From IMG/VR virus record IMGVR_UViG_3300031994_000063: a stretch of DNA of 64,000 nucleotides. One strand, written 5' to 3'. This DNA comes from a virus (Duplodnaviria; Heunggongvirae; Uroviricota; Caudoviricetes). Under the pieces are notes generated by a model. The model worked only from the letters and a program-made list of their open reading frames with translations. It made no database searches and was not told the DNA's origin. The translations under genes were made by a program, and so were the position numbers. Each line of letters opens with the position of its first letter. The first letter of the stretch is position 1. Positions 3,964-44,450 of this stretch are shown in pieces.

Positions 3964-4045
3964 GACTTCAGACGGTTAGCTTAGTGGCTTAAAGCCTTGG
4001 ATTTTACCAAGAGAACGTAGGTTCGAATCCTGCACCACCTTAGTT
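3964..4045 (+). tRNA. tRNA-like (D-arm gctt-agtggctta-aagc, T-arm gtagg-ttcgaat-cctgc); anticodon unresolved
   Basis: Canonical D- and T-arms are visible. Acceptor pairing and anticodon loop could not be resolved by eye. Confidence 0.3.
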
Positions 4046-4507: not shown

Positions 4508-5446
4508 ATGACAAATCTTAAATTGCTTACATATAACGTTGATGGACTTCCAGAAACATTGGATTTGAATGACCTCCCTTGGTTGTTTAAACCCTTTGTA
4601 TGGATATATAAGCTAATAAAGGGTACAACTGTCATTACGATTAATGATAACGTAAATAAAAAAGAGAATAATGATAAAATTGCCAAATATTTAAATTCCT
4701 CTGATGCTGACATCATTGCGGTTCAAGAGGATTTTAACTACCATGACAACTTAATCTCTAAGTTGGATAAGAAATATAATTGCGGTACTTATCTCGGTGG
4801 TTTTGACCTTTCCAAGATATTCTCAAACACTGAGTGGTTAACATATTTCCCACTTCCTAGATTTAAATGTGATGGTCTTAACTTGCTAACCAAAAAAGAA
4901 AAAGTTACCACAATTAATGAAACCATTATATCATGGAAAAAGAATTGTGGGTATTTCAGCAACGCCAACGATGCATTAACTCATAAGGGGTATAGGTTTT
5001 ATGAAATTATGAAAGAAAACGTGAAAATTGGTGTGTATGTGATTCATATGGATGCCAATTACTATACCGCTGATACTACAGAGGCTCCAAAAGACATCAA
5101 GGCTAGAGAAGCACAATTGAAGCAATTGGCAAAAGACGTAATAGAAAATTCAAAGGGGAATAACCCATTGACAATAATCATAGGTGATACAAACAGTTAT
5201 AATCAATATTCTTGGGATGTAGATAACCTTAAAAAGAATTTAATTGAACCAATTGAATCAACATATAACTTAACAATACAAGAGGTTGTGCCACAGAATT
5301 TTGCAGACTGTGATAGAATATATACAATAAGTAATGTGGGATTACTGAAAACCTTGAATATCAAGAGTTGTTATTTTGATAAGGAAATGGAGGGGGTTTC
5401 TGACCACTTACCATTGGTTTGCGAAATAGAATTTGAAAAAAAATAG
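4508..5446 (+). CDS. endonuclease/exonuclease/phosphatase (EEP) family protein
   Basis: 312 aa. N-terminal LTYNVDG and IAVQE. C-terminal SDHLPL, the EEP SDHxP catalytic motif. Confidence 0.65.
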   Translation: MTNLKLLTYNVDGLPETLDLNDLPWLFKPFVWIYKLIKGTTVITINDNVNKKENNDKIAKYLNSSDADIIAVQEDFNYHDNLISKLDKKYNCGTYLGGFDLSKIFSNTEWLTYFPLPRFKCDGLNLLTKKEKVTTINETIISWKKNCGYFSNANDALTHKGYRFYEIMKENVKIGVYVIHMDANYYTADTTEAPKDIKAREAQLKQLAKDVIENSKGNNPLTIIIGDTNSYNQYSWDVDNLKKNLIEPIESTYNLTIQEVVPQNFADCDRIYTISNVGLLKTLNIKSCYFDKEMEGVSDHLPLVCEIEFEKK

Positions 5447-9966: not shown

Positions 9967-10621
9967 GCATCCGTAGCTCAATTGGACAGAGCAACGGCCT
10001 TCTATTTAAATTGGATGCATAGGCGAGAAATCCCTATGTAGAATCTCCCTAAAACGGTGGAAGTCCTAGTTAAAATTGAAGACCCTTAGTACTTATAAAG
10101 GAAAGTGGAATACGGTTTCAATGGCTTGCAGCAAACGTAAACTGCATCTGAAACAATAAGGAAGGATAATACCGTGCTAAATTGAATGTAGAGGCGAAAA
10201 AATCTCTAATGAGAATGAAAATACGCTTCAGAAAAGTTAATGATTAAGTATGCTACATTCATAAATGTGTAGAGAGTATATAGGAGATATGAGGGAAATA
10301 CATTGAATACCCTCACATTCTATTCAGATGTATCTGATAAGAATGCCTAAGTTGAAATTAAAGATGGTAGTCCAAACAGGTTAGAATGCGAAGATAAAAG
10401 TAGTATTACTATGGAAGTAGAACGCCAATCTGACTTGCAAGAATTTCAATATGGTAATAATGTATTCCAGACCACAATAAAATTATCAGATTCAAGAAGC
10501 AAATAACCGTGAAATTCGGTCGCGTGTGTATAATCAAAGCTCGCGGAAAAGATGATTTTAGCTATGGTAACATAGTGTGACAGGAAGCCGTAGGTTCTGG
10601 GTTCGAGTCCCAGCGGATGTA
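9967..10621 (+). tRNA. split tRNA-Arg(TCT) interrupted by a ~580-nt intervening sequence (group I-like intron candidate)
   Basis: 5' exon 9967-10003: acceptor gcatccg, D-arm tagctcaattggacagagc, anticodon 5' stem acggc, loop start cttct. 3' exon 10585-10621: aa, anticodon 3' stem gccgt, variable aggtt, T-arm ctggg-ttcgagt-cccag, 3' acceptor cggatgt. All stems complementary. Upstream exon ends in U, intron ends in G. aagatggtagtcc at 10361-10373 resembles the group I S element. Confidence 0.5.
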
Positions 10622-10627
10622 CTAATT

Positions 10628-11108: not shown

Positions 11109-11197
11109 GTAGAGGTAAAACGTAACTGGATGACCGTCCTAGTCTACGAAACTAGTGTATCGAAAGGTACTTGTGGGTTCGAATCCCACCCTCTATA
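11109..11197 (+). tRNA. tRNA-Arg(ACG)-like with long variable arm
   Basis: Acceptor gtagagg/cctctat. Anticodon stem ctagt/actag with loop ctacgaa. T-arm gtggg-ttcgaat-cccac. Confidence 0.45.
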
Positions 11198-11216
11198 CAA
11201 AATCAAATTTCCAAAT

Positions 11217-19831: not shown

Positions 19832-19917
19832 ATACAGGTGGGGGAGTGGTTTAACCCAGCAATCTCCAAAATTGCCGTAGTTTTGTGCTACCGTAGGTTC
19901 GAATCCTACCCTGTATG
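19832..19917 (+). tRNA. tRNA-Trp(CCA) with extended variable hairpin
   Basis: Acceptor atacagg/cctgtat. Anticodon stem gcaat/attgc with loop ctccaaa. T-arm gtagg-ttcgaat-cctac. Confidence 0.5.
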
Positions 19918-20034
19918 CTATAATCCTTATCGGTGTTTACGGTGTAACAGAGCACTGCGCTTGGTCTATTAGTACCTTGAACTAACAAAAACCGTTAACT
20001 GTCGTGGTAGGTAGAGGAAGCCTACTATATTGTT

Positions 20035-23053: not shown

Positions 23054-23500
23054 CAATTTTTTATCATGGGCTTGTAATGGATTTGACAGCAATGCATTTG
23101 GTAAGAAACAAGCAGTGGGCATACACTTGAAATAGCAAAAAAAATATAAACGGCGAGAATGTTAATTCTCCTGCTTACGAGTACGCTATTGCAGCGTAAG
23201 TAAGCCGAGAGGCTAGGCTCTTAGGAACAGAACATCCTAGCATTCTTTCTTTAGTCATCTTTTAGTTTTCCTTGTTTTCACAAAACAAGGTGGTCTCAAA
23301 GGCGGTGTCTTCGGACACTTTGGGGAAGCTTGTATAATTTCTTATGGAATGGTTGTTTGGACCGCAGTTCGACTCTGCGCAAGTCCACTTAACTACTTGA
23401 AAATCAAACGCTTAACAAAATTTAAGAAAAAACTTCTTGAAAATTTTGGAACTTTCAAAAATTTTATATATCTTTGCATTGTTAAACAAAAAGACATACA

Positions 23501-23924: not shown

Positions 23925-24009
23925 CGTGGGATAGTGTAATGGTAACATGCAAGGCTCATAACCTTGAGACGGAACTCGCATCGTGTTGGTTCGAATCCAA
24001 CTCCCGCAA
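23925..24009 (+). tRNA. tRNA-Met(CAT)-like with C1·A72 and 18-nt variable region
   Basis: Anticodon stem caagg/ccttg with loop ctcataa. T-arm gttgg-ttcgaat-ccaac. 3' end tcccgcaa resembles bacterial initiator tRNA. Confidence 0.45.
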
Positions 24010-24012
24010 CTA

Positions 24013-25588: not shown

Positions 25589-25713
25589 AGGGATTTAGCT
25601 TAATTGGCAAGAGTAATTTGTTGCGACTTAAGGAATAAAGCACTCTCGACTTCGGAACAGAGTGTGCCTTTAACTGTTAATAAACGATGGCGGTTCGAGT
25701 CCGTCAGTCCCTG
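25589..25713 (+). ncRNA. tRNA-like with ~50-nt insertion (contains repeat tctcgacttcggaacaga)
   Basis: Perfect acceptor agggatt/agtccct. D-arm tagcttaattggcaagag. T-arm ggcgg-ttcgagt-ccgtc. Total 125 nt. Confidence 0.35.
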
Positions 25714-26458: not shown

Positions 26459-26684
26459 AACTTACGATAGAGGCGTAGGGGTACAAGCGTGGGCTAACGT
26501 TAACTGAATTAACAGCTACTGAGGGTGTGAGTAATTACATCTAGGCGTAATGGTGGACACTTAGTAATAGCCTTATTGGTGTGCCGAAGTGCTCAATGTC
26601 AAGTCCTTATGGGATAAAAGAAATCTTGGCGGTTGAGAATAACGAGATTCCAGATGAAAGTACCTCCGTAAGTTTTATTAATCA

Positions 26685-26768
26685 TGGGGTGATGTAGTGG
26701 TAACATGACGGTCTCATAAGCCGTATACGCTTGAAACGCTTGCGTTGGTTCGAATCCAACCCCCTTGA
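26685..26768 (+). tRNA. tRNA(CAT)-like with long variable region
   Basis: Anticodon stem acggt/gccgt with loop ctcataa. T-arm gttgg-ttcgaat-ccaac. Acceptor pairing imperfect. Confidence 0.4.
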
Positions 26769-26773
26769 CATAA

Positions 26774-27023: not shown

Positions 27024-27335
27024 ATGAATACAAAAATTTTTACAAACAACGCAACCACTAAAGAACAGTATCTTAAATTTAAGGAGTATATCAAAAGTAG
27101 AGAGCATTCTCATTGGACTTACGTAGCATATTACATTTTTAAGCATCGTATTGAAGGCGAGGAACGTGATAAGTATCTTGATGAAGAGGTTAAGACTCGT
27201 TGCCATAAAGGTCTCTACAGTGGTAGACTAGTTGGTAGTGGTGGTGATATGACTGAGAATTATGCAATTCCACTTTTTAAAAATTACGTTATCGAGGAGT
27301 ATAACAAATTTGCATCCGCAGAAAGCAATGACTAA
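27024..27335 (+). CDS. hypothetical protein
   Basis: 103-aa ORF. No motifs recognised. Confidence 0.45.
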   Translation: MNTKIFTNNATTKEQYLKFKEYIKSREHSHWTYVAYYIFKHRIEGEERDKYLDEEVKTRCHKGLYSGRLVGSGGDMTENYAIPLFKNYVIEEYNKFASAESND

Positions 27336-27627
27336 AAAGAAGTTATACATACTCGTAGATAGAGCGTTAAAACCAGTATATGGTTGTGTTCAAGGCGGTC
27401 ATGCAGTGGCTCAATGGATGATTGAGCATCCTAATAGCCTTGAATGGAGTAACGATTATTTGATTTATCTATATGCTGACGTAGATAAGTGGAAAAGAAG
27501 GCTTGAAGGGTATGGCATTGACTACACCGAGTTTAAAGAACCAGATTTAAACTATAAAACAACAGCCTTGGCGGTTTTCGGACACGAAGAGCTATTTAAA
27601 AATTTGAAAACAGTAACCGAAGACTGA
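27328..27627 (+). CDS. peptidyl-tRNA hydrolase PTH2-like protein (tentative)
   Basis: KKKLYILVDRALKPVYGCVQGGHAVAQ and C-terminal KTTALAVFG follow the PTH2 pattern (K..lVvR.DL.m..GK.aaQ..HA ... TvvalGP). Start set at the ATG at 27328. Confidence 0.45.
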   Translation: MTKKKLYILVDRALKPVYGCVQGGHAVAQWMIEHPNSLEWSNDYLIYLYADVDKWKRRLEGYGIDYTEFKEPDLNYKTTALAVFGHEELFKNLKTVTED

Positions 27628-27727: not shown

Positions 27728-28045
27728 ATGAAAAAAGCAGCAAGTTTAAATATTGGCGATACTGCCATATACATAAATGGCTACGATGTTATAGAATCAA
27801 AAGTAGTCAAAGAGCCTATTAACGATGGTAAAACTAGACCAAGTTTCAAAATCGGTAGAACTGACCTTGAAAATGGTGAATATCTCGTTAATGGGCAGCT
27901 TGTGTATGATAGCGAAGAAGAAGCCAAAAAAGTGGCAATAGAGAGGTTAAAAGAAGCAATCAAGAGGCATACCGATGAAAAGCTCATTGCTGAAGGTATG
28001 CTGCTTGTTCTGAACAATAAGTTGAAAAAATTATCTGAATCTTAA
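27728..28045 (+). CDS. hypothetical protein
   Basis: 105 aa. Promoter ttttgataattcaattttttttagtatctttgcaatATG immediately upstream. Confidence 0.5.
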   Translation: MKKAASLNIGDTAIYINGYDVIESKVVKEPINDGKTRPSFKIGRTDLENGEYLVNGQLVYDSEEEAKKVAIERLKEAIKRHTDEKLIAEGMLLVLNNKLKKLSES

Positions 28046-28054
28046 TATTTAACT

Positions 28055-28145
28055 GGGCATATGGCAGAGTGGTTTAATGTGCTGAACTCTAAATTCAGTA
28101 TGGGCTTGAGAAAGTTCATCGTGGGTTCGAATCCTACTATGCTCG
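28055..28145 (+). tRNA. class II tRNA with anticodon CTA (putative amber suppressor)
   Basis: Acceptor gggcata/tatgctc. D-region tggcagagtggtttaatgt. Anticodon stem ctgaa/ttcag with loop ctctaaa. Long variable arm. T-arm gtggg-ttcgaat-cctac. Confidence 0.5.
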
Positions 28146-28244
28146 CTACAGCTAGTACAAAGTTAAAAATTGTTAAAGTTGAACTGATTATTTGGTTAGT
28201 TCACCTTTTTTTCGTACCTTTGCATCAATAAAACAATAAACAGC

Positions 28245-29220: not shown

Positions 29221-29721
29221 ATGAAAGATAAATTAAGAATATTGGGTGTAGAATTACTCAATTCAAATTTGACGATTGGCACAGTAGAACATTGCACTAG
29301 TGGTTTACTTGGCGCATCCATATCAAGTATGTGTGGACTAGATACAGTTTATTGCGGAACAATAGTTGTTGTTGACCAACCCCATATGGAGAAACTATTA
29401 GATGTATCGCCTAACGCAATAAAAAACAATGGGCTTGTAAGTTCCCAAGTGGCTTGCCAAATGGCTCTAAATGGTCTTTATAAGTTAAATACAGATATTT
29501 GTGTTGCGGTGGTTGGTAATGTATTGCCTACGGAAGACTTTAATGAGGATACTTATAATGTCGTTTGGATTTGTATTGCGACAATGACAGATAAAAAAGT
29601 AGATTTTAAATATAGCAAAATACAAGTAGATGGATTACGAGGCCAAAACATTGAAACTGTAATTGAGTCTGCTTTAGAAACTCTTATAGTTGAAATTAAA
29701 CACATTACTGTTGAAAAATAA
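29221..29721 (+). CDS. pncC: CinA-C/PncC-like NMN deamidase
   Basis: LTIGTVEHCTSGLLGASIS matches the CinA C-terminal domain motif (lT.A.AESCTGG). Confidence 0.6.
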   Translation: MKDKLRILGVELLNSNLTIGTVEHCTSGLLGASISSMCGLDTVYCGTIVVVDQPHMEKLLDVSPNAIKNNGLVSSQVACQMALNGLYKLNTDICVAVVGNVLPTEDFNEDTYNVVWICIATMTDKKVDFKYSKIQVDGLRGQNIETVIESALETLIVEIKHITVEK

Positions 29722-30089
29722 TGGACTGTGTATTTTGTGACATCCAAAAGGATAGGATAATCTATCAAGATTCTTTATGGATTGCTATTTTAGATGGTTA
29801 TCCAGTTTCGGAAGGGCATACCCTATTAATTCCCAAAAGGCATTGCGAAACCTATTTTGATTTAAACCAAGTGGAATTGGGCACTCTTATTGGTGCAATT
29901 GACCGCGTTAAAGAAATACTTGATTCTAAATACAAGCCAAATGGGTATAACATAGGGGTGAATTGTGGCGAGGCTGCTGGGCAAACCGTTATGCATTGCC
30001 ATATACACGTTATACCTAGATATAACGGTGATTGTGAAGACCCAAGAGGGGGTGTGAGGGGTGTCATTCAATCTAAACAAAAATATTAA
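29721..30089 (+). CDS. HIT-family hydrolase
   Basis: HCHIHVIPR histidine-triad motif. Overlapping start (ATG A) with the pncC-like gene. Confidence 0.75.
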   Translation: MDCVFCDIQKDRIIYQDSLWIAILDGYPVSEGHTLLIPKRHCETYFDLNQVELGTLIGAIDRVKEILDSKYKPNGYNIGVNCGEAAGQTVMHCHIHVIPRYNGDCEDPRGGVRGVIQSKQKY

Positions 30090-39380: not shown

Positions 39381-39463
39381 AGTGGTATGGTAGAGTGGTC
39401 AATTGCGCTTCTCTCATAAGGAAGTTGGGAAACCTATCGCTGATTCGAATTCAGCTACCACTA
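39381..39463 (+). tRNA. tRNA(CAT) with long variable arm
   Basis: Acceptor agtggta/taccact. Anticodon stem cttct/ggaag with loop ctcataa. T-arm gctga-ttcgaat-tcagc. Confidence 0.5.
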
Positions 39464-39468
39464 CAAAG

Positions 39469-43262: not shown

Positions 43263-44450
43263 ATGAAAAAATTAACGACATATGAGTTTATTGAAAAAGC
43301 CAAGAAAGTCCACGGAGATAAATATGATTATTCAAAAGTTGAATATGTTAACAGTAGAACAAAAATTTGCATTATTTGCCCACAACACGGAGAGTTTTGG
43401 CAAACCCCAAATGCGCATTTAATGAAAGAAGGGTGTCCTAAATGTAAGGGCGAAAACGTATCAAAAGAAAATAGATGCACAACAAATGAATTTATTGAGA
43501 AAGCAAAAAAGGTTCATGGAGATAAGTATGATTACTCAAAGGTAGATTACAAAAATAATAGTACAAAGGTTTGCATTATATGCCCTATTCATGGCGAGTT
43601 TTGGCAAACACCAAACTCGCATTTAAATGGGTGCGGATGCCCAAAATGCGGTATAGAAACAATAAGGAAAAATAACATTGGGAAGAAAAGAAATGGCGGT
43701 AAAACAGCATTAAGCATTGATAGTTTTATTGAGAAAGCAAAAAAGGTTCATGGAGATAAGTATGATTACTCAAAAGTGAAATATACCAACAACAAAACCA
43801 AAGTTTGCATAGTTTGTCCCATTCATGGCGAGTTTTGGCAAACCCCAAATGCACACTTATTGGGTTTTGGGTGCTATAGATGTGGTCGTGAATCTATGTC
43901 CACAAAGCAGACAAAAAACACTGAAATTTTTATAGAAGAGGCAAAAAAGGTTCATGGGAATAAATATGATTATTCAAAAGTGAAATATACAATTGGAAAT
44001 AAAAAAGTGACCATTATATGTCCTATTCACGGTGAGTATTTTCAAAGACCATATAATCACCTACGAGGTCAAGGATGTCCTTACTGTAATGAAAGCAGCT
44101 TAGAAAAAGAAATTAATGACATTTTATGCGAACACAATATAAACTTCATAAAACAATGTAAAAAAGATACTTTTGGGTGGTTAGGTAAACAAAGTTTGGA
44201 TTTTTATTTACCAGAATATAATATTGCTATTGAATGCCAAGGGGTACAGCATTTCGGACCGTATGCTTTTTTTGGTGGCGATAAAGGATTTTATAAACAA
44301 ATTGAAAGAGATTATAAAAAATTAAAAAAATGTATTGAGCATAATATAAAAGTATTGTATTATACAAATCCATCATTTGACACATTATATGAAGTTATAA
44401 CAGATAAAGAAGAATTAATAAAAATAATAACAAATGAAAATTATAAGTAA
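43263..44450 (+). CDS. homing-endonuclease-like protein: 4 tandem Zn-binding modules plus Vsr/DUF559-like PD-(D/E)xK nuclease domain
   Basis: Four ~75-aa repeats (KVHGDKYDYSKV..ICPIHGEFWQTPN.HL.GCPKC). C-terminal LDFYLPEYNIAIECQGVQHF ... DYKKLKKCIEHNIKVLYY matches the DUF559/Vsr core. Confidence 0.55.
   Translation: MKKLTTYEFIEKAKKVHGDKYDYSKVEYVNSRTKICIICPQHGEFWQTPNAHLMKEGCPKCKGENVSKENRCTTNEFIEKAKKVHGDKYDYSKVDYKNNSTKVCIICPIHGEFWQTPNSHLNGCGCPKCGIETIRKNNIGKKRNGGKTALSIDSFIEKAKKVHGDKYDYSKVKYTNNKTKVCIVCPIHGEFWQTPNAHLLGFGCYRCGRESMSTKQTKNTEIFIEEAKKVHGNKYDYSKVKYTIGNKKVTIICPIHGEYFQRPYNHLRGQGCPYCNESSLEKEINDILCEHNINFIKQCKKDTFGWLGKQSLDFYLPEYNIAIECQGVQHFGPYAFFGGDKGFYKQIERDYKKLKKCIEHNIKVLYYTNPSFDTLYEVITDKEELIKIITNENYK

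Follow-up and report, generated by a model that had tools for sequence, protein, structure and literature searches.

A putative amber-suppressor tRNA beside a predicted Pth2-fold gene in a huge phage that appears to keep TAG as a stop codon

Introduction

A suppressor transfer RNA (tRNA) encoded by a phage is usually taken as a flag for annotating its genome with an alternative code. The classical amber suppressors are of a different kind: supE tRNA-Gln, supF tRNA-Tyr and supD tRNA-Ser are single-base mutants of cellular tRNAs of known identity, Escherichia coli supF being tRNA-Tyr with a CUA anticodon. Phage suppressor tRNAs are themselves already known, from Lak, crAss-like and Agate phages and from other recoded and jumbo phages (10.1101/2021.08.26.457843; PMC8346664; PMC13037316), and they and the recoding of TAG to glutamine have both been described (10.1101/2021.08.26.457843; PMC8346664; PMC9523058). 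A suppressor tRNA without matching recoding also has precedent, and standard-code relatives of TGA-recoded phages carry TGA suppressors. Here we analyse a tRNA gene with a CUA anticodon at positions 28055-28145 of a 64,000-nucleotide (nt) stretch of DNA from a tailed phage (IMG/VR record IMGVR_UViG_3300031994_000063), the whole of which we call the window. With a probability of roughly 0.7, we read it as a functional phage amber-suppressor tRNA that belongs to a family paired with a Pth2-fold gene, that carries a variable arm uninformative about the amino acid, and that resides in a genome that is not broadly recoded.

Two further described systems bear on this locus. The code-change module described for Jade phages combines a suppressor tRNA, an aminoacyl-tRNA synthetase plus a release factor upstream of the lysis genes (10.1101/2021.08.26.457843). 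The allo-tRNAs are serine-like, with long arms and unusual anticodons, and some have been proposed to act as nonsense suppressors (Mukai et al. 2017, PMC5389517). A previous sequence-only reading of the window had called the gene a putative CUA suppressor of class II architecture, had taken its long variable arm to make it leucine-, serine- or tyrosine-like, and had linked it tentatively to read-through or stop-codon reassignment. The suppressor call and the architecture stand; the amino acid inference lacks support, as does the recoding link in the sequence examined.

Results

A tRNA gene with the anticodon CUA

The immediate locus comprises these features (aa, amino acids; ORF, open reading frame):

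28055-28145, plus strand: tRNA gene with the anticodon CUA at 28089-28091 (ARAGORN, Rfam RF00005, covariation of 15 orthologs)
27328-27627, plus strand: gene for a 99-aa protein with a predicted Pth2-type peptidyl-tRNA-hydrolase fold (AlphaFold2 and Foldseek)
27728-28045, plus strand: 105-aa ORF between the Pth2-like gene and the tRNA gene, ending 9 nt before the latter (ORF list)
28180-28212, plus strand: AT-rich hairpin followed by a T run, a possible intrinsic terminator (sequence)

The tRNA gene is 91 nt long and encodes no CCA. ARAGORN calls a tRNA at 28055-28146(+) with the anticodon cta at position 35, and the Rfam model RF00005 scores 55.1 bits on 28055-28145 (gathering score 29; E=3.9e-9 for the whole window), so that both programs agree on a CUA-anticodon tRNA with class II architecture. 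Read from the sequence, the acceptor stem GGGCATA/TATGCTC has 7 base pairs (bp), G2.U71 among them, and the D stem has 3 bp and a G13.A22 pair. The anticodon stem is the 5-bp ctgaa/ttcag helix that the sequence-only reading had described, with 28082-86 pairing with 28094-98 around the loop c-t-C-T-A-a-a. The variable region of 22 nt (28099-28120) forms an 8-bp stem, atgggctt/aagttcat, closed by a GAGA loop and flanked by one unpaired base on each side, which places the molecule in structural class II (a variable region of more than 10 nt that forms a stem-loop). The T arm reads gtggg-ttcgaat-cctac, and the discriminator base at 28145 is G (G73). The universal features of tRNAs are all intact (U8, A14, the GG of the D loop, U33, A37, TTCGAAT and the 7/5 acceptor/T geometry), as are those of a canonical elongator tRNA, namely a 7-bp acceptor stem, a 5-bp T stem, a 7-nt anticodon loop with U33 and a T loop of the form TTCRANY.

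A concern raised at the outset was that the anticodon might be mis-registered by one nucleotide. This is excluded by the Rfam alignment, in which CUCUAAA falls on the anticodon loop of the model; because this alignment and ARAGORN share one register, the CUA call is not a one-base error. The amber anticodon, 5'-CUA-3' at positions 34-36, is moreover invariant in 62 syntenic orthologs. In the alignment of 15 orthologs, cloverleaf pairing is found in 94.3% of the cells, against 36-53% when the partners are slid by 1-3 columns; both sides have changed at 12 cloverleaf pairs, and a score as high as the observed one was reached in 0 of 500 shuffles. Changes in the variable arm of one ortholog (L004) likewise preserve pairing, G-C being replaced by A-U and G.U by A-U. 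Judged by its sequence, the element is a genuine phage tRNA gene reading UAG, and the suppressor call is correct.

The label tRNA-Pyl that ARAGORN attaches to the gene is merely its name for a CUA anticodon. Pyrrolysine tRNAs have a 3-nt variable loop, a small D loop without GG and a 6-bp anticodon stem (PMC7609411); these are unmatched by the 22-nt variable region and the normal D loop with GG in the window. The Rfam scan found no theta or HDV-like ribozyme and no other Rfam family beside the tRNA. An exact 25-mer of the tRNA gave zero matches in IMG/VR, and a looser pattern led to one contig.

Pairing with a Pth2-fold gene

The longest ORF of the 99-aa gene begins at 27262, and the conserved start is the methionine at 27328. 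A database search returned 565 homologs of the protein, all unnamed. The protein has no Pfam match, so it does not fall within PF01981, and no sequence match in the PDB; it was therefore identified by fold search alone. The AlphaFold2 model has a pLDDT of 91.7, and the top 12 Foldseek matches in the PDB are all of Pth2 fold (probability 1.0, TM 0.56-0.71), 2zv3, 3erj, 1q7s, 1xty, 1rlk and 2gax being among the matches. Those that carry names are the Pth2 hydrolases Bit1, AF2095 and a Sulfolobus enzyme, whereas MJ0051, TA0108 and Atu0240 are structural-genomics entries. By this model, the protein has the Pth2 alpha/beta fold; hydrolase activity is putative.

An alignment of the 99-aa protein and a homolog that lies next to a related tRNA brought up 71 IMG/VR loci, most of which lie on contigs of 90-412 kb; with the window and two Lak genomes added, the set comes to 74. 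In 63 of the 74 a suppressor tRNA (62 CUA, 1 UCA) lies 18-1618 nt downstream of the 99-aa gene on the same strand, in 5 it lies 0.6-1.8 kb upstream, 4 have no suppressor tRNA, and 2 are cut off by the contig end. The pairing thus holds in 68 of the 72 loci that can be evaluated, which come from huge phages of the gut and rumen. In GenBank phages, the protein is confined to the Prevotella Lak megaphages, whose copies show 47-53% identity, and to a single uncultured phage of 462 kb. In bacterial and archaeal genomes a gene like it was found in three contigs of metagenome-assembled genomes only, which are probably mis-binned phage and gave no clue to the host. From these comparisons, the tRNA of the window appears to be the local member of one orthologous suppressor lineage that stays within about 2 kb of the Pth2-fold gene, usually just downstream of it. 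In the literature searched, which was of limited coverage, "peptidyl-tRNA hydrolase" is never mentioned together with phage suppressor tRNAs, and a partner of the suppressor with this predicted fold seems to be undescribed there.

As for the remaining features of the locus, tblastn with the 105-aa ORF found 10 sequences, the window itself included, and its Pfam match is weak and below threshold. The hairpin at 28180-28212 reads tgaactgatt-attt-ggttagttca, followed by CC and TTTTTTT; RNA folding predicts a 10-bp hairpin with a weak z-score of -1.3, and its G-C pairs are too few for it to have been flagged in a scan for consensus terminators.

A variable arm of changing length

In the nearest relatives, the orthologs of the suppressor have the same acceptor stem, D arm and T arm, and differ in the length of the variable region:

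L014: total 75 nt, variable region 5 nt
L008/9, L016, L018/20 and L022: total 76-78 nt, variable region about 7 nt
L007, L010, L012 and L015: total 86-87 nt, variable region 16-17 nt
The window, L004/L011, L006 and L013: total 92 nt, variable region 22 nt

Most of the syntenic orthologs are class I. Arm length is unrelated to the identity of the neighbouring protein (ranked by that identity, the tRNA lengths run 92, 86, 77, 77, 87, 92, 86, 92, 75), which indicates that the arm has been gained, lost or resized repeatedly. Nor are long arms confined to the suppressor: among 716 unique tRNAs of these loci, 55 are at least 82 nt long and have anticodons for Arg, Asn, Asp, Cys, Glu, His, Lys, Met, Thr or Trp. 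Since one and the same backbone carries regions of 5-22 nt, and since arms occur on many tRNA species, the arm says little about the amino acid. In this comparison of sequences the 22-nt arm is a recent, lineage-specific expansion and not a sign of serine, leucine or tyrosine ancestry; the proposal that the long arm makes the tRNA "Leu/Ser/Tyr-like" finds no support, given the orthologs with regions of 5, about 7 and 16-17 nt and the arms of Trp, Met, Arg, Lys and other tRNAs. Such expansion on an orthologous suppressor, with similar arms on other phage tRNAs, appears to be undescribed in the literature that we covered. It would mean that a long arm is unusable for assigning Ser, Leu or Tyr in these phages, which affects isotype calls and the prediction of reassigned codons.

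Five long-armed tRNAs of the window have anticodons other than those for Leu, Ser and Tyr:

19832-19918: Trp (CCA) tRNA, 87 nt, long arm
11109-11198: Arg (ACG) tRNA, 90 nt, long arm
23925-24010, 26683-26769 and 39381-39464: Met (CAU) tRNAs, 84-87 nt, long arms

The arm of the Trp tRNA is kept across loci, with stem changes that look compensatory by eye. The CAU tRNAs at 23925-24010 and 26683-26769 both start with C1, and the former has a C1 x A72 mismatch like that of initiator tRNAs in bacteria, pointing to a phage tRNA of initiator type that has gained a variable arm.

TAG in the window lineage and in its relatives

The sequence-only reading had drawn attention to genes of the window that end in TAG, and those starting at 4508, 33127, 34122 and 36373 do so. 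Overall, TAG is the stop of about 9% of genes (window, 8 of 86; lineage, 12 of 133). From the end of a TAG-terminated gene of the lineage, it takes a median of 6 codons to reach a TAA or TGA, much as after genes that end in TAA and TGA, and a trend towards close back-up stops behind TAG, which would hint at active suppression, is non-significant (p=0.098 in the window, 0.18-0.25 in larger sets). On neither strand of the window did any pair of ORFs joined by a TAG survive inspection.

The comparison was extended with two related contigs. A 295-kb contig (IMG/VR 3300021256_000001) is about 90% identical to the window and syntenic with it; a 412.5-kb sister contig (IMG/VR 3300011989_000257) has the same 92-nt suppressor and a 99-aa protein 77% identical to that of the window. 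The former was walked with chimeric protein baits over 174-226, 229-249 and 265-287 kb, which together with the window amounts to about 112 kb, or 38% of the genome. All that this walk yielded were auxiliary genes in standard code (DnaK, DnaJ, a sigma factor, a Ro60-like protein, TyrRS, NAD-salvage proteins, an M42 peptidase and YqeY). The approximately 112 kb of the lineage, which include loci L079, L081, L084, L005 and L006 of the 295-kb contig, showed no gene interrupted by TAG. The same holds for loci L011, L083 and L096 of the 412.5-kb contig and for the roughly 86 kb of that sister genome that include the baseplate module. Candidate in-frame TAG codons near the tRNA in the 71 loci proved to be mostly gene junctions, with one clear exception described below, and apparent TAG joins in L157 and L153 are adjacent genes by comparison with homologs. 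In L157, a contig with an 87-nt suppressor, a lysozyme-like gene of the SLT type (assigned from motifs by eye) is uninterrupted.

Late genes were reached by using a homing endonuclease gene of the HNH type as a random sampler of related genomes and then its neighbour as bait. The tail/baseplate module of huge gut and rumen phages obtained in this way has a conserved order: a protein that matches the baseplate wedge family phrog_219 (about 670 aa, E=7e-15), one of 2,200-2,600 aa, and then several large ones, of which two have about 1,000 aa, one about 700-1,100 and the last, preceded by a protein of about 310 aa, about 1,100. Neither in Pfam nor in PHROG is there a match for the largest protein (2,000-2,600 aa across L166-L277) or for several of those of about 1,000 aa, and a protein of the module gave no tblastn match in GenBank phages. 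In the 412.5-kb contig (L169:1135-22369), seven abutting ORFs of the module contain 0 in-frame TAGs in 7,001 codons, against 307 out of frame. Across 112 loci (L166-L277), 462 ORFs of at least 500 aa with 525,000 codons contain 10 internal TAGs, which resemble gene junctions. Three module contigs from the window's own sample are TAG-free, their link to this phage being unproven: by tetranucleotide composition, their best correlation is r=0.96, against 0.98-0.99 for loci known to be of the same lineage.

The Lak phages served as a control. The 40 kb around the homolog in Lak-A1 contain 12 joins of ORFs of at least 60 aa by TAG, 0 by TGA and 3 by TAA; a "TAG-ended" ORF of Lak is followed by a median of 126 codons before TAA or TGA appears; and in alignments of Lak-A1 with Lak-B5, glutamine is the commonest residue opposite TAG (55 of about 120). 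By these alignments TAG is clearly a sense codon in Lak, mostly aligned with glutamine, in agreement with the literature (PMC8346664, PMC11165621); no recoding is evident in the deepest Lak branch (PMC8346664). Too few homologs from the clade of the window were found for a comparison of Lak TAG positions with them. The exception among the 71 loci is a 270-aa gene with 8 in-frame TAGs (L035:18134-18946, with orthologs in L036-L040 but not in L034). It sits in human-gut phage contigs of 99-182 kb, at a distance of about 8 kb from a CUA tRNA of class I, and its sequence makes a clear case for local recoding in more distant members of the tRNA/Pth2 family.

Lak-A1 (L077:19242-19314) and, at the equivalent place, Lak-B5 (L078) have a tRNA with the anticodon UUA about 0.6-0.7 kb upstream of the Pth2-like gene. 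Such an anticodon reads UAA and, through wobble, UAG as well. A UAA-reading tRNA is universal in Lak genomes though TAA is not recoded (PMC8346664), and the UUA tRNA beside the Pth2-like gene matches this published remark on a TAA-type suppressor.

In the lineage of the window, by contrast, TAG is an ordinary stop as far as codon usage in all the sequence examined can tell, and the proposed link to reassignment or read-through finds no support in the window, in the lineage sequence read or in the sister baseplate module, where no gene that requires read-through was found. The strongest alternative is that the tRNA nonetheless marks a partial reassignment, with late structural or lysis genes elsewhere in the genome containing in-frame TAG codons that need the suppressor, as in Lak, Agate and crAss-like phages. 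The heavy TAG recoding of the Lak relatives, in our analysis and in the literature (PMC8346664), speaks for this, as does the 8-TAG gene in distant relatives with class I CUA tRNAs; published recoded genes lie in scattered late modules while the code-change genes are in standard code (10.1101/2021.08.26.457843), the sequence read is about 38% of the genome, and the tRNA is strongly conserved. Nevertheless, we consider such a reassignment unlikely, given the complete lack of TAG-interrupted genes in the window, the lineage and the sister genome as covered above, the essentially TAG-free baseplate module in all 112 loci sampled, the uninterrupted lysozyme-like gene of L157, and a TAG stop frequency that is normal at 8-10%.

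Which amino acid

Our first guess for the inserted residue is glutamine, a tentative choice that we hold at somewhat less than even odds, lysine, tyrosine and serine also being candidates. It is based on analogy with Lak and crAss-like phages and on the tendency of synthetases to read a CUA anticodon through U35. Of the elements of tRNA-Gln, U35 and G3-C70 are present in the suppressor, whereas G1-C72 and G2.U71 differ; the phage's own tRNA-Gln has U1-A72 and G2-C71. Two observations weaken the guess, namely that the suppressor has G1-C72 and not the U1-A72 of the phage tRNA-Gln, and that its D and T arms are closest to those of the phage tRNA-Lys(UUU). Indeed, its nearest relatives with another anticodon are the phage tRNA-Lys(UUU) genes, with which it has the D and T arms in common; the Gln, Tyr and Ser tRNAs of the phage are less alike. 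The discriminator is A73 in nearly all orthologs and G73 solely in the window copy and L018; backbone and A73 point to lysine. Identity as a tRNA-Leu, which strictly requires A73, does not fit the G at 28145.

A YqeY/GatB-C-terminal-like protein (PF09424, E=7.5e-17; L084:12489-13121) is encoded about 14 kb downstream of the position equivalent to the end of the window. The YqeY/GatB-C-terminal domain aids tRNA-Gln binding in some GlnRS and GatB proteins, and this protein might bear on how a suppressor of Gln type is charged.

That the tRNA is a supF-like suppressor inserting tyrosine, with a bacterial class II tRNA-Tyr as its source or model and the phage's own TyrRS to charge it, seems to us distinctly improbable. 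This reading draws support from a full-length TyrRS of bacterial type (PF00579 2.7e-68, with a SYY C-terminal domain; L002:116-1396) about 7.4 kb upstream of the start of the window, from the lack of a tRNA-Tyr(GUA) among the approximately 37 tRNAs of the window, and from the class II form, U35 and, in most orthologs, A73 of the suppressor. The window copy, however, has G73 and C34, whereas bacterial TyrRS needs A73 and bacterial tRNA-Tyr has G34; class I orthologs share the backbone; and the tRNA-Tyr(GUA) genes of related phages, with GGG...CCC acceptor ends and 3-bp variable stems, have a dissimilar one. Jumbo phages that use the standard code have similar TyrRS genes too, which led us to reject TyrRS as a marker specific to suppressor phages; in Lak, no such gene was found. 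We likewise rejected the idea that an acceptor end with G2.U71 is common to phage tRNA-Tyr, as it was found in one aberrant tRNA-Tyr only.

Insertion of serine deserves about as little credence. SerRS, which is blind to the anticodon, would on this account accept a copy with the 8-bp arm, G73 and C11-G24, and SerRS does depend on the long arm and G73 (PMC7609411). All three are present in the window copy, whose arm stem of 8 bp lies in a 22-nt region with a single unpaired base per side and whose D arm is almost identical to that of the phage tRNA-Ser(UGA). Against it stand G2.U71, which is conserved in 13 of 15 suppressor orthologs and takes the place of the G2-C71 found in the phage tRNA-Ser genes, and the A73 of most orthologs, some of which are without any arm; both observations also tell against the "Leu/Ser/Tyr-like" assignment. 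The pair G2-C71 is a major determinant for SerRS in E. coli. Trp, Met, Arg and Lys tRNAs with similar arms, furthermore, would be toxic if charged by SerRS.

The surrounding region

The window has 34.8% G+C, nearly all of its genes lie on the plus strand, and its approximately 37 tRNA genes and a transfer-messenger RNA (tmRNA) gene lie dispersed between small genes of unknown function. GenBank phages gave no nucleotide match to 15.5 kb or to 2.5 kb of the window, and a protein search with an 828-aa ORF was likewise negative; sequence identical to the window was found in contigs of JGI metagenome 3300028805 and in one ENA assembly. Through the 99-aa protein, the nearest GenBank relatives of the phage are the Prevotella Lak megaphages. 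Flanking genes encode TyrRS, RtcB, NAD synthase, SSB, TelA, DnaK, DnaJ, a sigma factor, a Ro60-like protein, RNA ligase, NAPRTase, NADAR and macro-domain proteins. The window is an accessory region of a huge phage.

Genes related to NAD and ADP-ribose and to RNA repair are dense at 29221-30089 and 59-64 kb of the window and in L002, L003, L079/L084 and L081. They include NAD synthase, NAPRTase, NADAR, isochorismatase-like, CinA, HIT, macro and PARG-like proteins, together with RtcB, RNA ligase and a Ro60-like protein with TROVE and VWA domains, a set that may serve to counter NAD-depleting or RNA-cutting defences of the host. The tmRNA gene (23068-23390; Rfam 73.4 bits) directly follows a tRNA-Ile gene, and its predicted tag peptide is GENVNSPAYEYAIAA. 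Three tRNA-like genes are odd: that at 3970-4041 has a 6-nt anticodon loop and the ARAGORN label "tRNA-???", and that at 25589-25713 is a 125-nt Rfam match (36 bits) called by ARAGORN as a tRNA-Asn with a 53-nt insertion. The third, at 9967-10622 in an ORF-poor stretch, is called by ARAGORN in intron mode as a tRNA-Arg(TCT) with a 581-nt intron.

The HNH homing endonuclease used as a sampler (phrog_559, E=8.6e-85), which has four internal repeats of a zinc-ribbon module, is multi-copy. It lies at differing sites in related genomes, including inside the baseplate gene cluster, and its copies include the following:

43263-44450 of the window
L005:6688-7344
L081:9030-10001
L080:1858-2985, minus strand

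Discussion

The simplest course of events for a functional suppressor at this locus would be that the tRNA is transcribed from the plus strand together with the upstream genes, the transcript ending at the hairpin and T run, and that it is then processed and given its CCA. A host synthetase would charge it, and it would compete with release factor 1 at UAG codons. Its role is most likely to lie in a few TAG-containing genes not yet seen, in low-level late read-through, or in being a retained code-change module that it shares with recoded relatives.

Several points weigh against reading the gene as a functional suppressor in a genome that is not broadly recoded. Its strong conservation argues for a real task, and none was identified in the sequence examined; and transcription, charging and suppression are all steps that we infer. 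The sequence read covers about 38% of the approximately 295-kb genome of the lineage, with the capsid, portal, terminase and lysis genes lying outside it, and the TAG-free baseplate module belongs to a sister genome whose 99-aa protein is 77% identical, the contigs from the window's own sample not being firmly linked. Weakest among the alternatives, and in our view scarcely tenable, is that the gene is a tRNA-like relic or a non-translational RNA (a nuclease decoy, a primer or a regulatory RNA) that does not decode UAG: the sequence examined holds no codon that requires a suppressor, and Lak has its UAA-reading tRNA without evidence of TAA recoding (PMC8346664), but the universal tRNA features are all intact here, and CUA is invariant in 62 loci while the stems co-vary.

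The functional suppressor that we favour invites a broader speculation, which is possible although we would not expect it to hold: that a large group of huge gut and rumen phages, standard-code lineages included, keeps a module of a Pth2-fold protein and an amber suppressor, that they have rebuilt many of their tRNAs, the suppressor among them, with long hairpin arms whose length differs between close relatives, and that the variable arm is a phage-specific handle that makes their tRNAs "private". If so, privacy could come about through recognition by a phage factor, shielding from tRNA-cleaving defences or avoidance of host synthetases, and the suppressor would serve timed read-through or interference with host termination rather than wholesale recoding. 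The practical consequence is more immediate. A suppressor tRNA, the customary flag, can coexist with TAG as a stop, and automatic re-annotation with table 15 would wrongly merge or extend genes. The pairing with a Pth2-fold gene and the repeated gain and loss of the arm are testable leads on how huge phages manage translation.

It is worth considering how the window tRNA stands beside the systems from which it would otherwise be interpreted. With supE, supF and supD it shares a CUA anticodon on a normal elongator tRNA and a presumed competition with release factor 1; unlike them, it is a dedicated and conserved phage gene, with a backbone that matches none of the phage Gln, Tyr and Ser tRNAs. 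The allo-tRNAs resemble it in combining a long arm with an anticodon outside Leu, Ser and Tyr, but they have an 8/4 or 9/3 acceptor/T geometry, and the canonical 7/5 arrangement of the window tRNA led us to reject its membership. The recoded gut phages (Lak, crAss-like and Agate; code 15) are closer: they too have a phage-encoded CUA tRNA in a standard-code, tRNA-rich region, and they too are huge animal-gut phages of Bacteroidota type (10.1101/2021.08.26.457843; PMC8346664). They differ in that no TAG recoding was found in the sequence examined of the window lineage and in its 22-nt arm, where orthologs are mostly class I. Lak also shares the Pth2-like gene, beside which two Lak loci have a UUA tRNA instead. 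Finally, whereas the Jade module pairs its suppressor with a synthetase and a release factor, the partner here is a protein of predicted Pth2 fold, with no recoded genes downstream; what the two have in common is a fixed neighbourhood in which a suppressor tRNA and a translation-related protein are kept together in a standard-code module.

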